IMG/VR virus record: IMGVR_UViG_3300025732_000035
Location: 1-64,000 of that record
Source of the DNA: a virus
Direction: 5' to 3' (one strand)
DNA: 64,000 nt
Shown in pieces: positions 3,526 to 22,034 of the stretch. Under the pieces are notes generated by a model that was not told the origin of the DNA, ran no database searches, and saw only the letters and a program-made list of their open reading frames with translations. How positions within the stretch are numbered: the first letter of the stretch is position 1; the number at the start of each line of letters is the position of its first letter. Position numbers and translations under genes: made by a program.

Positions 3526-3651
3526 GTTTCGCCCTTTGGGGGCTCCACTCTGGCTGGAGCGGCATTGCGGAGGTTTAAGGTCTCGTCTGGCCTGTTCTTT
3601 TTAGGGAATCTTGGCCTTGCGACTGAGGCGCTTCGCCCTTGGGGGCTCCGC
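3526..3651 (-). repeat. two copies of a GGA-stem-loop-GAA hairpin motif
   Basis: minus strand GTGGA-GCCC-CCAAA-GGGC-GAAAC (3526-3548) and GCGGA-GCCC-CCAA-GGGC-GAAGC (3630-3651); related copies at 60.9-61.2 kb. Confidence 0.75.
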
Positions 3652-4284: not shown

Positions 4285-6300
4285 TCAAAACCACTCATCA
4301 TCGTCTTCCCCTTCGGGAAGACTTTCATTGGAAACAATGGAAACAGACTCTTCTTTAGGAGCTTCTTCCTGAACGGGAACAGGTTCAAAATCAACATCTG
4401 GAGCTTCATAAGCCCAGCTTTGATACATCCTGGTGCGCTCGCCATTCGGACCAATAATGAAGCTGGTGTCAATCAAGCCTTGACGACGTGCCACTTCTAG
4501 TAATCGTCCAACGCTTACGGTGTCCCATGAGCCAGAAGCGTTAGCAGCGGCCTTCCTATCAAAACGTTCATGCTTTCGAGAATTAATCATATTGACAAGA
4601 TTGTCCATACTTTCATTGCCACCCACTGCAGGCCCCTTGTAATACCAGCCATAAGTGGCAGGATCACGCTGCATGAAATGCTTACCAGCCAAACCACTCC
4701 TGCTCTTGGTCCATTCAAACATGAACTGCGTTGAATCGGGATTATTGTCAGTGCGATAGAGTTTCACCACTTCACTAACGTTGGCTTCAAAGCTGGAGCT
4801 ATCACGAATGCCGCCACTTTTGTTTAAGTGGTGAAGGATGACAATGGAGCAACCATATTGATTGGCAATGTCACGTAGTTCGTAAATGCAATTGCCAGCA
4901 TCAGAACGAATGAGATCAACGTCCATGCCAGCCAAGCATGAAGTGAGGCTATCTATCATGATGAGCTGTGGCTGATGACGTTGTACGTAGGAAAGGAGTT
5001 GGGGAATGTTGCTAAAGCGCCAGCGATCAATGAAATCAATTTGACCATTGCCTAGCGCATCATCGTCGTAGCCAATAATTTGAAGCTTTTCTGCAGCATC
5101 AACAACTGGTTCGTCGCATTGAATGATCAGCACTTTACCTTTCTTGCAGCGTCTGTTACTCCAATCCTTACCTGTGGCAACGTGCAGAGCCCAGTTGTAA
5201 ACAATAGTGCTCTTGCCGCTACCAGGAGCTGCTGCTAGCAGCATTACACTGCTTTCAGGAAGAATGCCAGCAATGGTCCATTTTCTGGAATCTTCAGACT
5301 GTGCAATTGCTTTTGCATCGAGGATTTCCATTTCCTCTTTGCCATGCACACGACCACGCGCTTCAGAAAGCAGCTTGTCGATTTCTTGTGAATTTAGCTT
5401 GACGCCATGAGCGTCCATCCATTGGCGAGCTTCATAGGCAATGCGGGCGTCGTTGTTGTAGAGACCAACCATGCGCTCAAACGTGCCAATGATCTCCTCA
5501 TAAGAAGGCAGCCCGTCCTTTCCTTCGTGCCTGTCTTTTGAAACGATGCAGGAAAGAATGGCACCTTGATCTGCACCATCATCAAGCCAGTCGGCTAAGT
5601 CGTAGCCTCCTTTTTGAGGCAGATTGTCCCATTCAAAGCTACTGGGATCCGCGTAGCACCATTGTGCATTGGGATTGTCTGCAGCCACTTCCTTCATGAG
5701 AGCCACGCCAGGCTCGTCACGATCAGGACAAAGAACTACTTTCTGTCCGCGAAATAGTTGCGAATAGTCACCATTTGCGCGATATTGTCCGCTGCCACCA
5801 AGAAACGTACTAGAAGGCAAACCAATTTCCCAAAGCCTATCGGCAGTCAGTTCGCCTTCAACAATGAAGATGGGCAGGCCTGATGCTGCTGATGCTTCAA
5901 TGGCATCGTAATAACGATAGGGAAGAATATTCTTTCGCAGTTGTTTGACAATTTCAGAACGCTTGCCACTTGCGTTATTAGCAGTGGGATAGTCTTGCGA
6001 AATGCTTTTTTTGCCAGAAGTGTCGTCTCGCGTGACGACTATCACGTCTTCGCGGTTACGGTTTTGATAGGGAAACAAATAGCGCTTTGCTTCACGCATG
6101 GGACGCTCCCAGCGTTCTAACGGCGCAAGAATATTACGAATTTCTGCACGATGCTTGGGACTGTCGTCATTGAAACAGTTATATGCTCCGTTCCCTTCGT
6201 TTACGGACAGATCATTGCCACCGCATGCAGGGCAGATGTATTTGCCTGCATGGTCGCTCGGCTCCAGTTTGGCGAGGTGTTCGAGGATGGAAAAAGCCAT
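4285..6300 (-). CDS. DNA primase-helicase (Zn-binding + TOPRIM + RecA/AAA_25-type helicase)
   Basis: CPACG..NCF zinc motif; IVEGE and PDRDEPG TOPRIM motifs; Walker A APGSGKS, Walker B LIMIDS. Confidence 0.9.
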   Translation of the reverse strand: MAFSILEHLAKLEPSDHAGKYICPACGGNDLSVNEGNGAYNCFNDDSPKHRAEIRNILAPLERWERPMREAKRYLFPYQNRNREDVIVVTRDDTSGKKSISQDYPTANNASGKRSEIVKQLRKNILPYRYYDAIEASAASGLPIFIVEGELTADRLWEIGLPSSTFLGGSGQYRANGDYSQLFRGQKVVLCPDRDEPGVALMKEVAADNPNAQWCYADPSSFEWDNLPQKGGYDLADWLDDGADQGAILSCIVSKDRHEGKDGLPSYEEIIGTFERMVGLYNNDARIAYEARQWMDAHGVKLNSQEIDKLLSEARGRVHGKEEMEILDAKAIAQSEDSRKWTIAGILPESSVMLLAAAPGSGKSTIVYNWALHVATGKDWSNRRCKKGKVLIIQCDEPVVDAAEKLQIIGYDDDALGNGQIDFIDRWRFSNIPQLLSYVQRHQPQLIMIDSLTSCLAGMDVDLIRSDAGNCIYELRDIANQYGCSIVILHHLNKSGGIRDSSSFEANVSEVVKLYRTDNNPDSTQFMFEWTKSRSGLAGKHFMQRDPATYGWYYKGPAVGGNESMDNLVNMINSRKHERFDRKAAANASGSWDTVSVGRLLEVARRQGLIDTSFIIGPNGERTRMYQSWAYEAPDVDFEPVPVQEEAPKEESVSIVSNESLPEGEDDDEWF

Positions 6301-7287: not shown

Positions 7288-7447
7288 GCTTTATGCTCGC
7301 ATGAAGCAACTGGACCATGATGTGGTTCATTTGTTCGACTGCTTTGCTTCTGATACCGGAGTAGATGTGCTTGGCCTGTATCTCTCTTTTGATGAAGAAA
7401 GCGAACGGTATGTTCTCGACTGGCACTTTGCTTTTCTTGAAGAATGA
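7193..7447 (+). CDS. hypothetical protein
   Basis: ATGA coupling with downstream gene. Confidence 0.5.
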   Translation: MSSCMANINHRALAIKQLLLFMMNFPNLTTSELYARMKQLDHDVVHLFDCFASDTGVDVLGLYLSFDEESERYVLDWHFAFLEE

Positions 7448-8385
7448 ACCACGCCATCTTTACTTACTCTCCGTCCGACTTTTCCTGCATGGAAGACTCT
7501 GCAAAAGCTGCAATGCTCGACCGTTACAACGGCATTTTTACACCGCTGGAAATCAGCGCTGAAGCTTTTAAAGCTGCTTACGACACGCCTGGCATTGGTT
7601 CTCACATTGAAAAGGACTATAAAGGCTTATCCTATTTGTCGTGGCCTTTTGCTTTCCGCTACTTAAAGGAGCATTTCCCGACGCTTTTTGTGGCCTTTGA
7701 AGAGAAAACCATTGGCTGGCCCGTATTTGGCGAGCCTGGCGCCTTCATTCTTCGCCCCTATCTAACGGACGGCATTCGCCGCACTCCAGCACTGGTATTT
7801 CCAGTGATGGACAGGAAGCACAATTCCATTCAGCAGCTTGATGGTCGTGCCATTAGCGACAACATCCAACGTGCAAGCGTCAAGGCCATCGCTACGTTTA
7901 CGGGCCTTGGTCTTCGGCTCTATGCCGGAGAGGACATCCCTAAGGAAGAAGCACCGAAGCCTGCTCTGCAGCAAGATGTCCCAAAGCCTGCTCGTGCGGC
8001 CAAGAAGGCTGCGACGGGAACTACTGGTGGCACTTCTGACTCTGCCCCTGACTCTGCCCCTGACTCTGCCCCCGAGTCCTTCGATGCAAAAGCAGCTCTC
8101 ACAGCAGTTTGCAAAGCCAATCCTCTGAATTATGCCGACGAGAAAGCTTCTATGGCTGCAGGCAAAGCTGCTCTTGAAAGCATTGGACTTGCTCGCGCCA
8201 CGGAAGTCAAAACCTGGCAAGCCTTCGGAAACGTCGTCGCAGCAATGATGACGCTATGGGCAAAGCAAGAGCAAATTGCCATTAGCAAAGCTGAAATGAC
8301 TGAAGAAATCAATGCCGTGCGCGGCCTTGAAGATACTGCTGCCATTATTGATGGTATGAAAGCTTTTGTTGCAAAAAAGCAGTAG
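7444..8385 (+). CDS. single-strand annealing protein, Sak3/DUF1071-like
   Basis: IEKDYKGLSYLSW, PVMD, IQRASVKAIA..GLGLRLYAGED motifs; next to exonuclease and SSB-like genes. Confidence 0.85.
   Translation: MNHAIFTYSPSDFSCMEDSAKAAMLDRYNGIFTPLEISAEAFKAAYDTPGIGSHIEKDYKGLSYLSWPFAFRYLKEHFPTLFVAFEEKTIGWPVFGEPGAFILRPYLTDGIRRTPALVFPVMDRKHNSIQQLDGRAISDNIQRASVKAIATFTGLGLRLYAGEDIPKEEAPKPALQQDVPKPARAAKKAATGTTGGTSDSAPDSAPDSAPESFDAKAALTAVCKANPLNYADEKASMAAGKAALESIGLARATEVKTWQAFGNVVAAMMTLWAKQEQIAISKAEMTEEINAVRGLEDTAAIIDGMKAFVAKKQ
8036..8071 (+). repeat. in-frame 12-bp tandem repeat x3 (CTGACTCTGCCC; DSAP linker)
   Basis: directly visible. Confidence 0.9.
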
Positions 8386-18573: not shown

Positions 18574-18885
18574 TCAAGCCCAGGGAAGGCCAGTGCCAGT
18601 TTTCGGCTCACGCTGCTGTTCAATTTGCTGAGCAAGAGCGTCTTCAATTTCGGCAACTTTTTCGTCGCCAAATTTGTCCTTCACCCAGCCGATGACAATT
18701 TCGGGGGTGAGCTGAGCATACGGAATGGCTTCGTCTTCTTCGGGAGCTTCAAGACCAAGACTGCCATAGGCCGAGCTTGCATAAGTGCCATCATCGGCGG
18801 AGATCGTATAGTGAACAGTGCCCACGTAACCATTTGAAAGCGTGCGGTCCATATTGGCCACCGCCCATTGATAAGTAATTGCCAT
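18574..18885 (-). CDS. tail-fibre-associated protein
   Basis: TYQWAV..IPYAQLT..GWVK..GLPW, family commonly following fibre genes. Confidence 0.7.
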   Translation of the reverse strand: MAITYQWAVANMDRTLSNGYVGTVHYTISADDGTYASSAYGSLGLEAPEEDEAIPYAQLTPEIVIGWVKDKFGDEKVAEIEDALAQQIEQQREPKTGTGLPWA

Positions 18886-18920
18886 GATTAAAAAGAATGG
18901 TCTTTGTTAGTTTAGCAATG

Positions 18921-18951
18921 AAAAGAAAGGCGGTTTCTTCGGAAAACAGCC
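18921..18951 (-). terminator. terminator closing the tail-fibre plus cassette transcript
   Basis: minus strand GGCTGTTTTCCGAAGAAACCGCC followed by TTTCTTTT. Confidence 0.6.
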
Positions 18952-18971
18952 AGAGCTAGTAGTGACGTGGA

Positions 18972-19493
18972 CTAACGGGGTTTCCAGCGGACAAGGTTCC
19001 GCAAGGTCACAAGTGTGTACCTAGTCCACTCATCACCAATTGAGCCATCAATGGGGTACAACTTGCTGTACCACCAGGCGTACTGCTCGGGATTGATCTC
19101 CTGCAACCGTTCAAGCATTTCTGCGATGTCAACACAAAGATCGGGGTCAGGCCAAGCTTTGTCGGCTACCTCCATCAGGTGATCAACAAAGCGTTGAAGC
19201 TCCTCACGGCTACCGAAGATTTGCTCGTACTCACCATCGGAGTCGTTGCACAGCAGGACTTTGCCGTTCTTGGCCCAAGCGTAGTGCTGGTAGATGCCTT
19301 CGCTTGGGTCGTAATAAAAATCTGGAAAATGATGTGAACTCATCTGCCCAAAACTAAGGAAATTGGCGCGGTAGTCTGTAAGCCATTCTTCGCCCATCAA
19401 CTCTACCAGCTCTTCGCGGGTCAAGTTGTGGATCCATTCAAGACAAACTTTGAAACGCCACTCGTTTTCCTCCGGTGTAATGTCGTCAAGCAT
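18972..19493 (-). CDS. hypothetical protein (cassette 2)
   Basis: fills the interval between two repeat copies almost exactly. Confidence 0.65.
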   Translation of the reverse strand: MLDDITPEENEWRFKVCLEWIHNLTREELVELMGEEWLTDYRANFLSFGQMSSHHFPDFYYDPSEGIYQHYAWAKNGKVLLCNDSDGEYEQIFGSREELQRFVDHLMEVADKAWPDPDLCVDIAEMLERLQEINPEQYAWWYSKLYPIDGSIGDEWTRYTLVTLRNLVRWKPR

Positions 19494-19525
19494 ACGAGTG
19501 AAGGGGACTACCGAGTCTCATGTAC

Positions 19526-19554
19526 TTGACAGGTTAGACCCAATGTGCTATAGT
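19526..19554 (+). promoter_or_regulatory. near-consensus sigma70 promoter
   Basis: TTGACA-N17-TATAGT with extended -10 TG. Confidence 0.85.
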
Positions 19555-19591
19555 GGTGTTAAGGGGAGAGATCCCCACTGCACCTAGAAAA

Positions 19592-19777
19592 ATGAATTAC
19601 CGCACAGTTAAGGCTGTTCGAGACGAGCTGCATCGCCGTGGTGGTTGGCTCGAAACCATCAAAGACACCGAACGACCTGAGTACGCCCCGCATCTTTCTT
19701 TTGAGGAGTCGGGATGGATTCATGGGATTTGGATCAAAGATGAGTTGCTTGCTTGGGCAGTTGAAAACTTGAACTAA
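19592..19777 (+). CDS. hypothetical 61-aa protein (cassette 1, moron-like)
   Basis: own promoter, 5' GGGGA-GAGA-TCCCC hairpin and terminator. Confidence 0.7.
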   Translation: MNYRTVKAVRDELHRRGGWLETIKDTERPEYAPHLSFEESGWIHGIWIKDELLAWAVENLN

Positions 19778-19782
19778 CCACT

Positions 19783-19808
19783 GGCCCGCCTTAGAGCGGG
19801 CTTTTTTG
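19783..19808 (+). terminator. rho-independent terminator
   Basis: GCCCGC-CTTAGA-GCGGGC-TTTTTT. Confidence 0.85.
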
Positions 19809-19904
19809 TGCCGGGGATCCTGCAATACAAGACCCGCTGGTCGGGGAATACAGGGGGCCTCGCAGTGGCTATCGACCCCCCGGCAACCCTTTTAGTGAGT
19901 AGGA

Positions 19905-22034
19905 CTACGAGAGCTGGGCTTTAACAGCAGCCATCTCGGATTCCAGGGTTTCGATACGGAGCTGCGCCTCTTGCAGTGCCTTGATGGCCATCCACATCAT
20001 CTGCTGTTCTTTGACACCGATGCGCTCTTCCTGAGCAGGCTGGTCCTCAGTTGCTTCCTTGGCTTCTTGGAAGACGGTAATCACTTCCGGGCAGCTTTCC
20101 GCCACCTGCTGGGCAATTACACCCATGCTCAAGTCGGCTTCGTCTGACTGGTCCTTGTAGCGGAAGTTGACGATTTCCCATTCTTTTAAGCAGTCCCATG
20201 TGCCAGCGGCAGGCGCGATGTCCTTTTTGACGTTGCGGTCAGAAAGGTTGACGTTATTGGCGCTGTAATTAGCTATGCCACCATTAGACCGAATTGTTGC
20301 TCTTTCCGTCGTTGCGCCAACACACTGCAGAAAAAAGCGCGTACCATCATTTTGATCATTTGCTGTTTCAATGTATAAACCGTATTGCTGACCACTGGCG
20401 GCTGTGGACCTTATATATACAGATACGATATCATCTGCGTTATTAACAAATTCGTGAAAAGCGGCAGTAGAGTTGATATAACTACCAGTATTTGTAGCCT
20501 TAAAGGCACCTCTTTGAGTGATTCTTGCCCGCTCCGTAGGGCTGCTCGCTCCGTCGGCAGTAGTGGAGAACACTAAGCACGTTGGATGGCTAGTACCAGC
20601 GGTCCATGTACCGTCACCGTTCGCAGAGATAAATGCGCCAGCGTCGTTAGCAGAATTGGCGAAGCTGATATAGCCAATCGTGCTACCAGCGGATGCAGTA
20701 GTTGCGTTCCGCTGGATATTTATTGCTCCACCGGCAGCAGTAGTTCCACCTTGGACGATAAATTTAGCCTCGGCAGAACTAGAAGACGTGCCCACTAAAA
20801 ATCGACCACTTGAATCCCAGCGGCCACGCTCAGTCCCGTTTGTACCAAACAAGACAGGATGCGCTCCTCGCGCCCATCCCCCATAGACATTGTTAGAGGA
20901 ATCTTGACCGTATAAAGCACTGCTGGTTTGCGGGGTATTTCCGTTCCCTGCCATCTCCAGTAGGCAGTTTTGGCCTGAACCATTTGCAACCCAAACATCA
21001 CCACCAGCGCCATTGCTGACGATGTGTAGCTTAGTGCTAACTGAAGTAGTGCCAATCCCTACGCGCTGTGACGAGTCAATAGTTACTGCACGTGTGTTTC
21101 CATTCGTGGCAAGAATTAGATTTGCTTCTGCGCGAACAAGCCCATCGGTAGCTGCGGATCCACTAAGCCAACTTGAACCAGCGGTTCCGGTATAAAGAGC
21201 TTGAGTGCCTGATTGAAGAAATACCGTGCCACCGCCGCCGGCGGTGGTGGTATTGACATAGAGCGGTTGATAAGAGCTACCAACAATATGCAGTTGGCTA
21301 TTCGCATCTGGGCTAGAAGTCCCCAGACCTAGAGCACCTGTCGAAGTGAGGCGCATGCGCTCGGCGCCACCTGCGCCAAACTGCATACTTTCAGAGCCAA
21401 CTGCAGTGAGCACAAGCCTTCCGGCCGCCGATCCATGTGACTGGCCAAATGCGAGAATGTTCGCACCTGCACCAGCACCATCTCCACCATCAATCCGGAT
21501 ATAACTAGTTGCAGAAGTTTGAGAAATTTCACCAATAGATACTTTAATGTTTCCACTGCTATCAACAAACAACCGCCCAGTGCCATTAGTCGAGATGGCT
21601 AATTGGTCTGCGCCGGGTGAATAGAGGCCCGTATTCGTGTCGCCCGAGAAGTAGAGCCCTGGCGATCCAGCCGAGCCGGCGATGATGCCGAGCGCGCCGG
21701 TCATTACGTCGCCGTTGACGTCCACGAACGTGCCGGATTCGCTGCGCCATGCGCCACCGTCCCACACCTTGAACACATAGGTGTCGCCGGTAGTATCAAG
21801 CCATTGCTCACCCTTGGAATTGCCAGCAGTGCCGCCGCTTGCAGGACTAACATTAGGCGCAGTCGTGCCTACGTGTACAGGCCCCACTTTTACTAAATTG
21901 CCATTGCTGTCCTTAAAGAACATGCCAGGGCTTCCACTTGCATAGTTAATGGCAACTTGCCCATCAACCATGGAAGCAGGATTGGGACGCTTATCCAGCG
22001 TCGAGGAACGTAAATGCTGAAGAACGCCAGCCAT
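19905..22034 (-). CDS. receptor-binding tail fibre with C-terminal intramolecular chaperone (peptidase S74-like)
   Basis: repeated ERxRxDSSGxxxxGT motifs; SDRNVKKDI..GVIAQQV..IKALQE chaperone domain. Confidence 0.9.
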   Translation of the reverse strand: MAGVLQHLRSSTLDKRPNPASMVDGQVAINYASGSPGMFFKDSNGNLVKVGPVHVGTTAPNVSPASGGTAGNSKGEQWLDTTGDTYVFKVWDGGAWRSESGTFVDVNGDVMTGALGIIAGSAGSPGLYFSGDTNTGLYSPGADQLAISTNGTGRLFVDSSGNIKVSIGEISQTSATSYIRIDGGDGAGAGANILAFGQSHGSAAGRLVLTAVGSESMQFGAGGAERMRLTSTGALGLGTSSPDANSQLHIVGSSYQPLYVNTTTAGGGGTVFLQSGTQALYTGTAGSSWLSGSAATDGLVRAEANLILATNGNTRAVTIDSSQRVGIGTTSVSTKLHIVSNGAGGDVWVANGSGQNCLLEMAGNGNTPQTSSALYGQDSSNNVYGGWARGAHPVLFGTNGTERGRWDSSGRFLVGTSSSSAEAKFIVQGGTTAAGGAINIQRNATTASAGSTIGYISFANSANDAGAFISANGDGTWTAGTSHPTCLVFSTTADGASSPTERARITQRGAFKATNTGSYINSTAAFHEFVNNADDIVSVYIRSTAASGQQYGLYIETANDQNDGTRFFLQCVGATTERATIRSNGGIANYSANNVNLSDRNVKKDIAPAAGTWDCLKEWEIVNFRYKDQSDEADLSMGVIAQQVAESCPEVITVFQEAKEATEDQPAQEERIGVKEQQMMWMAIKALQEAQLRIETLESEMAAVKAQLS

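Follow-up and report, generated by a model that had tools for sequence, protein, structure and literature searches.

Short oriented boxes at the joints of a variable gene island behind the tail fibre of cyanophages

Several described systems place short conserved sequences at the borders of small gene units. Integrons are made up of the integrase IntI, the attachment site attI and an array of attC cassettes. T4-type phages reportedly carry PeSL (promoter-early stem-loop) elements, mobile regulatory cassettes described by Arbiol et al. in 2010, which are said to form short direct repeats bordering small accessory open reading frames (ORFs) in hyperplastic regions and are thought to drive modular shuffling. 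For lambdoid phages, Clark et al. are said to have reported in 2001 linker or boundary sequences at module joints, that is, short conserved stretches at gene borders where relatives trade non-homologous modules. The stoperators and start-associated sequences of Cluster A and Cluster K mycobacteriophages are asymmetric, oriented, intergenic motifs of 13-14 base pairs (bp) near stops or starts. The present analysis concerns a motif comparable to these in the IMG/VR virus record IMGVR_UViG_3300025732_000035, a sequence of 73,130 bases (rated complete by CheckV) whose first 64,000 nucleotides (nt) are the window analysed here. Three copies of a 14-nt motif lie on the minus strand of the window between a tail-fibre gene and a gene of the DUF7936 family, and they are copies of a conserved junction box that punctuates a hypervariable island of accessory genes.

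The box resembles PeSL in being a short direct repeat that borders small accessory ORFs. However, PeSL elements are said to be longer and to include an early promoter and a stem-loop, whereas the box is 14-19 bp in length, has no promoter and no supported hairpin, holds a stop codon, has variants tied to position and is found downstream of the fibre gene in a late operon. Lambdoid linkers share with it the setting of a conserved gene border at which unlike modules are traded, but the box is one repeated, dyad-shaped family found at many joints and common to podoviruses, siphoviruses and cyanophages with genomes of 73 kilobases (kb). Stoperators are close in size, orientation and intergenic placement; they are said to be distributed genome-wide and to bind an immunity repressor, whereas the boxes number three to five per genome, are found only in accessory arrays and stand at mosaic joints. 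By these descriptions, the box differs from each of these systems in a defining feature, as it does from the integrons and shufflons considered below.

In the window, the pattern AGTGANNNGGACTA has exactly three matches, where 0.03 would be expected by chance and where three were reached in none of 100 shuffles. Allowing one mismatch adds a single, unrelated match at 7606-7619, and in the full record (forward 0, reverse 3) there is no copy outside the three listed here. Read on the coding strand, which is the minus strand, the repeats take the form TAGTCCNNNTCACT and all three have the same orientation:

19894 to 19907, minus strand: site 3, the fibre-end variant of the box, TAGTCCTACTCACT; an exact match whose first three bases are the TAG stop of the fibre gene.
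19497 to 19510, minus strand: site 2, TAGTCCCCTTCACT; an exact match that ends 3 nt before the ATG of the cassette gene ORF173.
18961 to 18974, minus strand: site 1, TAGTCCACGTCACT; an exact match that gives ORF173 its TAG stop and is the last box before the terminator.

An earlier note, made from the letters of the window, had reported direct repeats at these positions, spaced 536 and 397 bp apart and with no further exact copy in the window, and the pattern search agrees on each point. Its account of the sites as supplying the stops of the fibre gene (site 3) and of the ORF at 18972..19493 (site 1), and as preceding the ATG of the latter by 3 nt (site 2), is also correct. The same note had read two copies as TAGT-N7-ACTA, which is true of sites 1 and 3, while site 2 deviates from this form. 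Since the TAG of site 2 closes no real gene, it is a relic that travels with the box. In two related loci (L086 and L087), the site-2 box likewise stands 3 nt ahead of the ATGs of N-terminal homologues of ORF173.

To set these copies in context, related loci were taken from IMG/VR, consisting of 80 of 136 relatives anchored on DUF7936 and a further 12 reached by way of ORF173, or 91 loci besides the window's own. Of the 91, 14 contain the motif in exact form. When one mismatch is tolerated, 42 copies are found on the coding strand versus 7 on the opposite strand (743 kb), and a count of ten variants of the central 7 bases over 173 loci (1.43 megabases) gives 250 direct copies versus 17 opposite ones. 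From 176 distinct copies, a consensus of AG-TAGTC-N5-C-ACT-ACT was obtained, with the conserved bases A..CC.AG upstream. Its geometry is that of two 6-bp inverted arms, AGTAGT and ACTACT, around an asymmetric spacer of 7 bp. Many copies have a degenerate right arm, with an A at position 12 in 56% and a C at position 13 in 70%, and the arms of the window's own three boxes extend over just 3-4 bp. The boxes are real, oriented and far better conserved than their flanks. They are limited to accessory arrays, the core genes of the genome being free of them. The motif is not restricted to the tail-fibre locus but is carried by other loci and other phage types.

The placement of the box follows the ends of genes. 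In 95 of 167 distinct copies, the TAG within the box ends a frame of at least 40 codons, versus 16% for any TAG on that strand, and another 48 copies lie within 30 nt of the end of such a frame. In 69 of the 176 copies, the first base of an ATG falls on box positions 16-23; elsewhere, what comes after the box is the terminator of the operon, a promoter, a conserved element with a hairpin or a gene for tRNA-Arg. Since non-coding units also come after boxes, what the box signals is that a unit has ended, and not a translation start specifically.

The content of the island was compared among 29 distinct loci in which a whole fibre ORF of the S74 type stands upstream of DUF7936, with ORFs of at least 35 amino acids called mechanically. 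The number of ORFs between the two anchors ranges from zero to seven: nine loci have none, six have one, six have two, one has three, four have four, two have five and one has seven. The length of the spacer between fibre gene and DUF7936 ranges from 62 to 3081 nt. Most empty loci are ordered as fibre, box, terminator and DUF7936. The window's island consists of two units, namely ORF173 and an inverted unit made up of a promoter, an ORF, a terminator and an sRNA-like element (sRNA, small RNA). In relatives, the units include many small uncharacterised ORFs, nucleases of the HNH and EndoVII types and a tyrosine recombinase of 284 amino acids, and many cassette ORFs have common N-terminal and C-terminal spellings. 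Variability in cassette number, order and content at this locus, as well as the existence of empty alleles, had been predicted from the window; both are seen, with nine of the 29 loci lacking any cassette.

Comparisons between individual loci place the joints of these replacements at the box. Locus L004 matches the window at about 100% identity over the stretch that begins with site 3 and includes DUF7936, while its fibre end has diverged; the change occurs at the box's first base. Locus L177 also has the inverted unit, between TAGCCCTACTCTCT and TAGTCACCTTCACT, with an ORF that is 93% identical, another gene upstream and DUF7936 directly downstream; the likeness starts and stops a few bases from the boxes. 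The proposal that the repeats delimit gene units is upheld. Of 138 pairs of distinct copies that are alike on the left and unlike on the right, 51 lose their likeness at box position 12 and 50 lose it at positions 6-7, and among pairs that are alike on the right with likeness reaching the box, 40 stop at positions -2 to +1. Since box positions 2-5 and 11 were fixed by the way in which copies were chosen, exchange can be located to either side of the spacer and no finer. Contigs from four lake runs (X6, X7, X8 and X11) have breaks at sites 1 and 3 as well as one replacement joint, in which 33 other letters stand in place of 18975 to 19174. Junctions of excised units had been put forward as something to look for, and no box-to-box skip or excision joint was seen in these contigs; because contigs drop rare variants, their absence weighs little. 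At the level of sequence, these comparisons show that unrelated units replace each other between phages, with joints at the box edges.

The box island is common to many Synechococcus phages, including T7-like podoviruses, siphoviruses and phages of the 73-kb type. In the T7-like podovirus S-CBP4, an identical copy of the site-3 14-mer lies 6 nt past the fibre stop, followed by a terminator and DUF7936, and it is the only copy in that 44-kb genome. S-CBP3 has two small cassettes joined by boxes. Boxes or close variants are present in S-LBS1, KBS-S-2A, S-H1 and WH11-B and degenerate boxes in S-RIP1 and S-EIV1, and none was found in P-SSP10, NATL1A-7, S-B28, S-CBP2 and S-CRES2. A second short array lies past the end of the window in the same record (positions 72809-73012, minus strand; G000:C1), where TAGTCCGATCAACT comes after an ORF ending in ELEAQ and is separated by 1 nt from an ATG, and where the next ORF terminates in TAGTCAGACCCCACT. 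A relaxed pattern that includes this array gives a strand tally for the record of 5 versus 0, with a shuffle mean of 0.85 and 5 reached in none of 300 shuffles. Larger second arrays with paralogous small ORFs and the same boxes are found in genomes G006 (12-13 kb) and G007 (32.2-32.6 kb), and locus L194 has a tandem of three ORFs that belong to one family. Word searches of the published literature, with supplementary tables outside their scope, found no description of the box, and searches with five 14-mers returned only an unrelated plant paper.

Along the island, the spacer variants keep a fixed order in 52 of the 55 distinct arrays that have at least two copies, under a ranking set after inspection of the data. 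The fibre-end variant is followed by CATTACC or CATTCCC, then by CGCTTCC, then by CACCTTC or CCCCTTC and finally by CCACGTC or CTTTGAC before the terminator. The window's three sites obey this order, and one of the three exceptions is due to a stray match 21 kb off. From the fixed order, each variant can be taken to mark a slot. Since a single variant is found at the ends of eight or more ORF families that are unrelated to each other, and since a gene standing downstream retains its own variant, the variants belong to slots and not to cassettes.

This behaviour bears on the integron-like logic that the earlier note had proposed for the array, which fails because the variants follow position and not cassette. 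There are likenesses to integrons: in both cases, co-oriented and mostly promoterless single-gene units are read from an upstream promoter, the joints are short, conserved and able to overlap stop codons, and some relatives of the window have a gene for a tyrosine recombinase at one end of the array. A variable, co-oriented and mostly promoterless array with empty sites is indeed found here. However, the box array has neither the long imperfect attC hairpin nor IntI. The recombinase is absent from this genome, and in relatives it is co-oriented, lies at the far end of the array and is matched weakly and only by XerC/D. In place of attC there are short sites of 14-19 bp in which no attC-type hairpin was found, as had been observed from the window; sites 1 and 2 fold as shuffles do, and a variant is shared by unrelated ORFs. 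The joint variants are tied to the slot rather than to the cassette. Judged by these sequence features, the array is not an integron.

The reading tentatively favoured here, with a probability of roughly 45%, is that the box-bounded island is exchanged by general short-homology recombination between co-infecting phages. Each box would end one unit, often by way of its TAG stop, and would precede the next, which may begin with an ATG 2-9 nt on or with a promoter, a hairpin, a tRNA gene or the operon terminator. Exchange would take place at the boxes during co-infection, and a further role in the stop-restart punctuation of the late operon would account for their retention, each being carried as the front end of a unit. 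Short-homology exchange is favoured because a Sak-type protein is encoded by this genome, nucleases are present in the island and boxes occur in phages without a recombinase. Since PF00589 has no match in five of five complete genomes of this phage type and since boxes are present in podoviruses and siphoviruses, no dedicated enzyme would be needed in cis. The Sak-type protein is a candidate for a recombination function that acts in trans:

7444 to 8385, plus strand: gene for a Sak-type single-strand annealing protein (PF06378, 71.2 bits, E 3.1e-21, at 7603-7974).

Several points weigh against this reading. The stretch shared at the boxes is only 11-19 bases, which is short for homologous recombination, and the boxes are equally conserved before non-coding units, where a translational restart is meaningless. 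The consensus dyad with its 7-bp spacer has the core geometry of a tyrosine-recombinase site, two exchange points flank that spacer, and a strongly conserved tyrosine recombinase occupies a fixed place by the last box in many relatives. The ranking of the variants, moreover, was made with the data in view. Finally, selection for intact genes is expected to give break points at gene ends under any mechanism.

Some of these points would be accommodated if the boxes were the core sites of the 284-amino-acid tyrosine recombinase, acting in cis or from a co-infecting phage, an alternative that seems somewhat unlikely. Each 6-bp arm would be bound by one monomer of a pair, with the 7-bp spacer as the overlap region, such that like spacers would recombine between genomes and cassettes would be swapped slot by slot; since the spacers differ between slots, no recombination would be expected among the sites of a single genome. 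The arms and spacer of the consensus over 176 distinct copies, the exchange points on either side of the spacer and the discrete, position-specific spacer variants suit this proposal. So does the enzyme, which is genuine (PF00589, E 1.5e-13, 51 bits versus a cut-off of 27; phrog_1, of the PHROG integrases, E 1e-38), short in the manner of recombinases with simple core sites and highly conserved, with invariant columns (Arg, Lys, xxR-H, Trp and Tyr) in 14 diverse copies that are 61-81% identical to the first. Its nearer copies (at least about 74% identity) lie between the last box and DUF7936, a box adjoins them upstream in most cases, and in three variants of the box the left joint of the gene comes after position 11. 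In runs X8 and X11, contigs depart from the window at 18964, inside site 1, with 30 loose letters that match the recombinase promoter of locus L018, which places the recombinase immediately after site 1 in near-identical variants of the present phage. The R64-type shufflon, with its recombinase Rci and 19-bp sfx sites, is similar in having sites of about 19 bp, a 7-bp spacer, unequal arms and a receptor-binding locus, and heterospecific lox/FRT exchange is similar in that spacers pairing only with their like would yield slot-wise exchange. Shufflon sites, however, are inverted and give inversions within one replicon, whereas the boxes are direct (250 versus 17), exchange is between genomes and the recombinase is only a candidate. 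Against the proposal, PF00589 has no match in this record and four complete relatives, with a control positive in 14 of 14 genomes, and the recombinase is present in only five of the 29 distinct whole-fibre loci. Boxes also occur in podoviruses and marine phages that have no recombinase in the region. The box beside the recombinase gene has no right arm, the right arm is degenerate in many other copies and the window's arms are reduced to a few base pairs, as described above. Distant homologues of the enzyme (61-68% identity) stand in other contexts with no clear box, and the lake contigs contain no box-to-box joint. A phage-borne system of cassette exchange, in which a small recombinase held by part of the population would act on 19-bp boxes with slot-specific spacers and swap units between families without deletions within a genome, is rated as unlikely. 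For S-LBS1, whose recombinase gene was annotated as an integrase, the authors regard it as a sign of lysogeny and propose att sites elsewhere (PMC6157547). The attP of T7-like cyanophages, according to a second report, consists of 39-bp matches to tRNA-Leu beside a different integrase (PMC8776855). Those attP sites are unrelated to the junction box.

A primarily regulatory box is quite improbable. It would be either the site of a dimeric DNA-binding protein controlling read-through of the island, much as at a stoperator, or a signal for RNA processing or stability, and cassette borders would match the box merely since every unit carries one. The box is oriented, intergenic and located at unit ends, its dyad suits a dimeric protein, its conservation is alike before coding and non-coding units, and it is confined to accessory arrays. 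An RNA hairpin, however, was rejected as unsupported because the arms have no compensatory changes and the folds of sites 1 and 2 are like those of shuffles (z 0.39 and 0.65); site 3 gives a z of -2.5, but the pairs involved fall outside the box. An Rfam search gave no match at the three sites, a promoter scan found nothing promoter-like at the boxes and no candidate regulator was identified, while the sharp mosaic joints at the box edges would still require recombination. It is very improbable that the boxes are roleless leftovers from tandem duplication of a box, leader and ORF, with the shuffling no more than ordinary gain and loss. Tandem paralogues such as the three ORFs of L194, second arrays with related ORFs and boxes in the same genomes and the shared terminal spellings of many cassette ORFs are as duplication would have them. 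Yet the boxes are much better conserved than the adjacent ORFs and flank units as unrelated as the fibre gene, HNH nucleases, the recombinase, the tRNA-Arg gene and the inverted promoter unit, and an identical 14-mer is found in phages of different families.

Whether short-homology exchange or another route applies, the position of the island directly behind the receptor-binding fibre would place fibre ends, homing nucleases, a recombinase, a tRNA and toxin-antitoxin-like units on the move among lake and estuary cyanophages of the podovirus, siphovirus and 73-kb types. A defined joint of 14-19 bp offers a handle on the trade of phages in accessory and host-range genes, and it can be searched for in viromes. 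In the cultured phages S-CBP3, S-CBP4, KBS-S-2A and S-LBS1, the box could be mutated, and a named enzyme is at hand as a candidate to try on it. Should the recombinase act on the boxes, they would represent a new site-specific gene-exchange device of viruses, and if cassettes are exchanged between families in this way, a natural counterpart of recombinase-mediated cassette exchange. If it does not, the island would be a clean and widespread case of box-mediated modular exchange.

The recombinase itself was followed further. Of 86 relatives in IMG/VR, 80 were retained. The gene is found at L018:5080-5934, at some 80 more loci and as gene A12 of S-LBS1, at identities of 61-95%, and the genomes that hold it are otherwise unlike, being of a 34-kb siphovirus type and of the 73-kb type. 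Searches of NCBIfam gave only weak XerD/XerC matches (E 1e-4 to 2e-3, far under the cut-offs) and no integron-integrase match, and a sequence search of the PDB found no relative. In a scan of bacterial genomes, the only hits were two contigs from metagenome-assembled genomes that resemble phage fragments. The absence of a recombinase, first remarked on for the window, was confirmed for the whole record with PF00589 and PF00239. A serine recombinase was rejected, as PF00239 is present in only one of five records (the 107-kb G001) and far from the island. Candidates of the two kinds suggested earlier as drivers of the array, a recombinase in trans and a Sak-type protein, are present: a tyrosine recombinase is present in the islands of many relatives and a protein matching PF06378 is encoded here, but this genome and four complete relatives have no recombinase of their own.

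Other identities for the box were also considered. The right half of the box presumably resembles the promoter cores of T7/T3-type phages. A promoter for a phage RNA polymerase was rejected, as the T7-like S-CBP4 holds one copy of the box in 44 kb. PF00940 was matched in none of five genomes, and as the control was likewise matched in none of 14, this absence carries no weight. A tRNA 3' end or attP was rejected on the grounds that the upstream CC.AG-T misfits a T-loop. A Shine-Dalgarno role was rejected as well, since the genes of this phage are mostly without such sites and the box is poor in G.

The remaining genes and elements around the three sites are as follows:

19905 to 22034, minus strand: tail-fibre gene, 709 amino acids, with a C-terminal Peptidase_S74 chaperone domain (PF13884, E 2.9e-10; PHROG phrog_28766, E 7.4e-81).
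19809 to 19893, plus strand: sRNA-Xcc1-like structured element (RF02221, 42.7 bits), abutting site 3.
19783 to 19808, plus strand: intrinsic terminator of the inverted unit (placed at 19783-19802 by the terminator scan), a 7-pair stem followed by a T-run.
19592 to 19777, plus strand: ORF of the inverted unit, 61 amino acids, for which no Pfam, PHROG or NCBIfam family was found.
19526 to 19554, plus strand: sigma-70-type promoter of the inverted unit, TTGACA-17-TATAGT, with 11 of 12 matches.
18972 to 19493, minus strand: ORF173, cassette gene of 173 amino acids, as given in the ORF list.
18921 to 18951, minus strand: terminator-like hairpin with a T-run that closes the fibre and island operon; one stem mismatch, -7.2 kcal/mol, z -0.42.
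18574 to 18885, minus strand: DUF7936 gene (PF25590, E 4.7e-36), which is conserved and anchors the island on its right-hand side.

The inverted unit had been described as having its own promoter and terminator, and both were found. The element beside it matches all of the sRNA-Xcc1 model (positions 1-87 of 87; E 1.1e-5 and 1.7e-6) at a score below the gathering threshold of 53 bits, and it is likely a distant relative and not a certified member of that family. Members of sRNA-Xcc1 have been reported in integron cassettes beside symE and also in APSE phages. In view of these contexts, the inverted unit may be a small toxin-antitoxin-like moron. ORF173 gave no match in Pfam, PHROG or NCBIfam and no usable match in Atlas; its relatives are mosaic, with 39 found that each cover 20-71% of its length. 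From site 1 to the terminator-like hairpin there is a gap of 9 nt, and the DUF7936 gene comes next. The claim that a terminator stands at 18921-18951 was sustained in part: in the window, the stem is mismatched, its z is unremarkable and a terminator scan left it unflagged, but most relatives have a perfect stem and a T-run at this position. At the ends of the record, a check for circular closure found no joined ORF and no terminal repeat. DUF7936 has 136 relatives in IMG/VR and 47 among phage records. The leader of the gene (18886-18920, minus strand) contains TAAACTAAC followed at a distance by ATTCTTTTTAATC and the ATG, is kept in most relatives and may hold a -10-type promoter of its own.

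Some further observations concern the units of the island. The nuclease units, of the HNH type (HNH_3 plus AP2) and EndoVII-like, lie at L015:2920-3420, L010:5406-5909 and L011:2363-2992, and some of them have their own hairpin-flanked leader immediately after the fibre-end box. In locus L121, a tRNA-Arg(ACG) gene (4897-4970) forms a unit flanked by two boxes, 30 nt upstream of the recombinase gene. A conserved non-coding element of about 70 nt, which consists of a 10-12 bp hairpin around a T-run with the repeated word TTTTGAGCAA, stands between two boxes in several relatives (L018:4948-5020, L021, L035, L047, L075, L081 and L119). Within the fibre gene, pieces of about 50 bp (window 20530-20602 and 21551-21602; query positions 3530-3579 and 4551-4602 in the comparison with T7-like podoviruses) are 94-96% identical to the fibre genes of S-CBP3, S-CBP4 and S-CBP42, which points to a recent trade of fibre parts between phage families.

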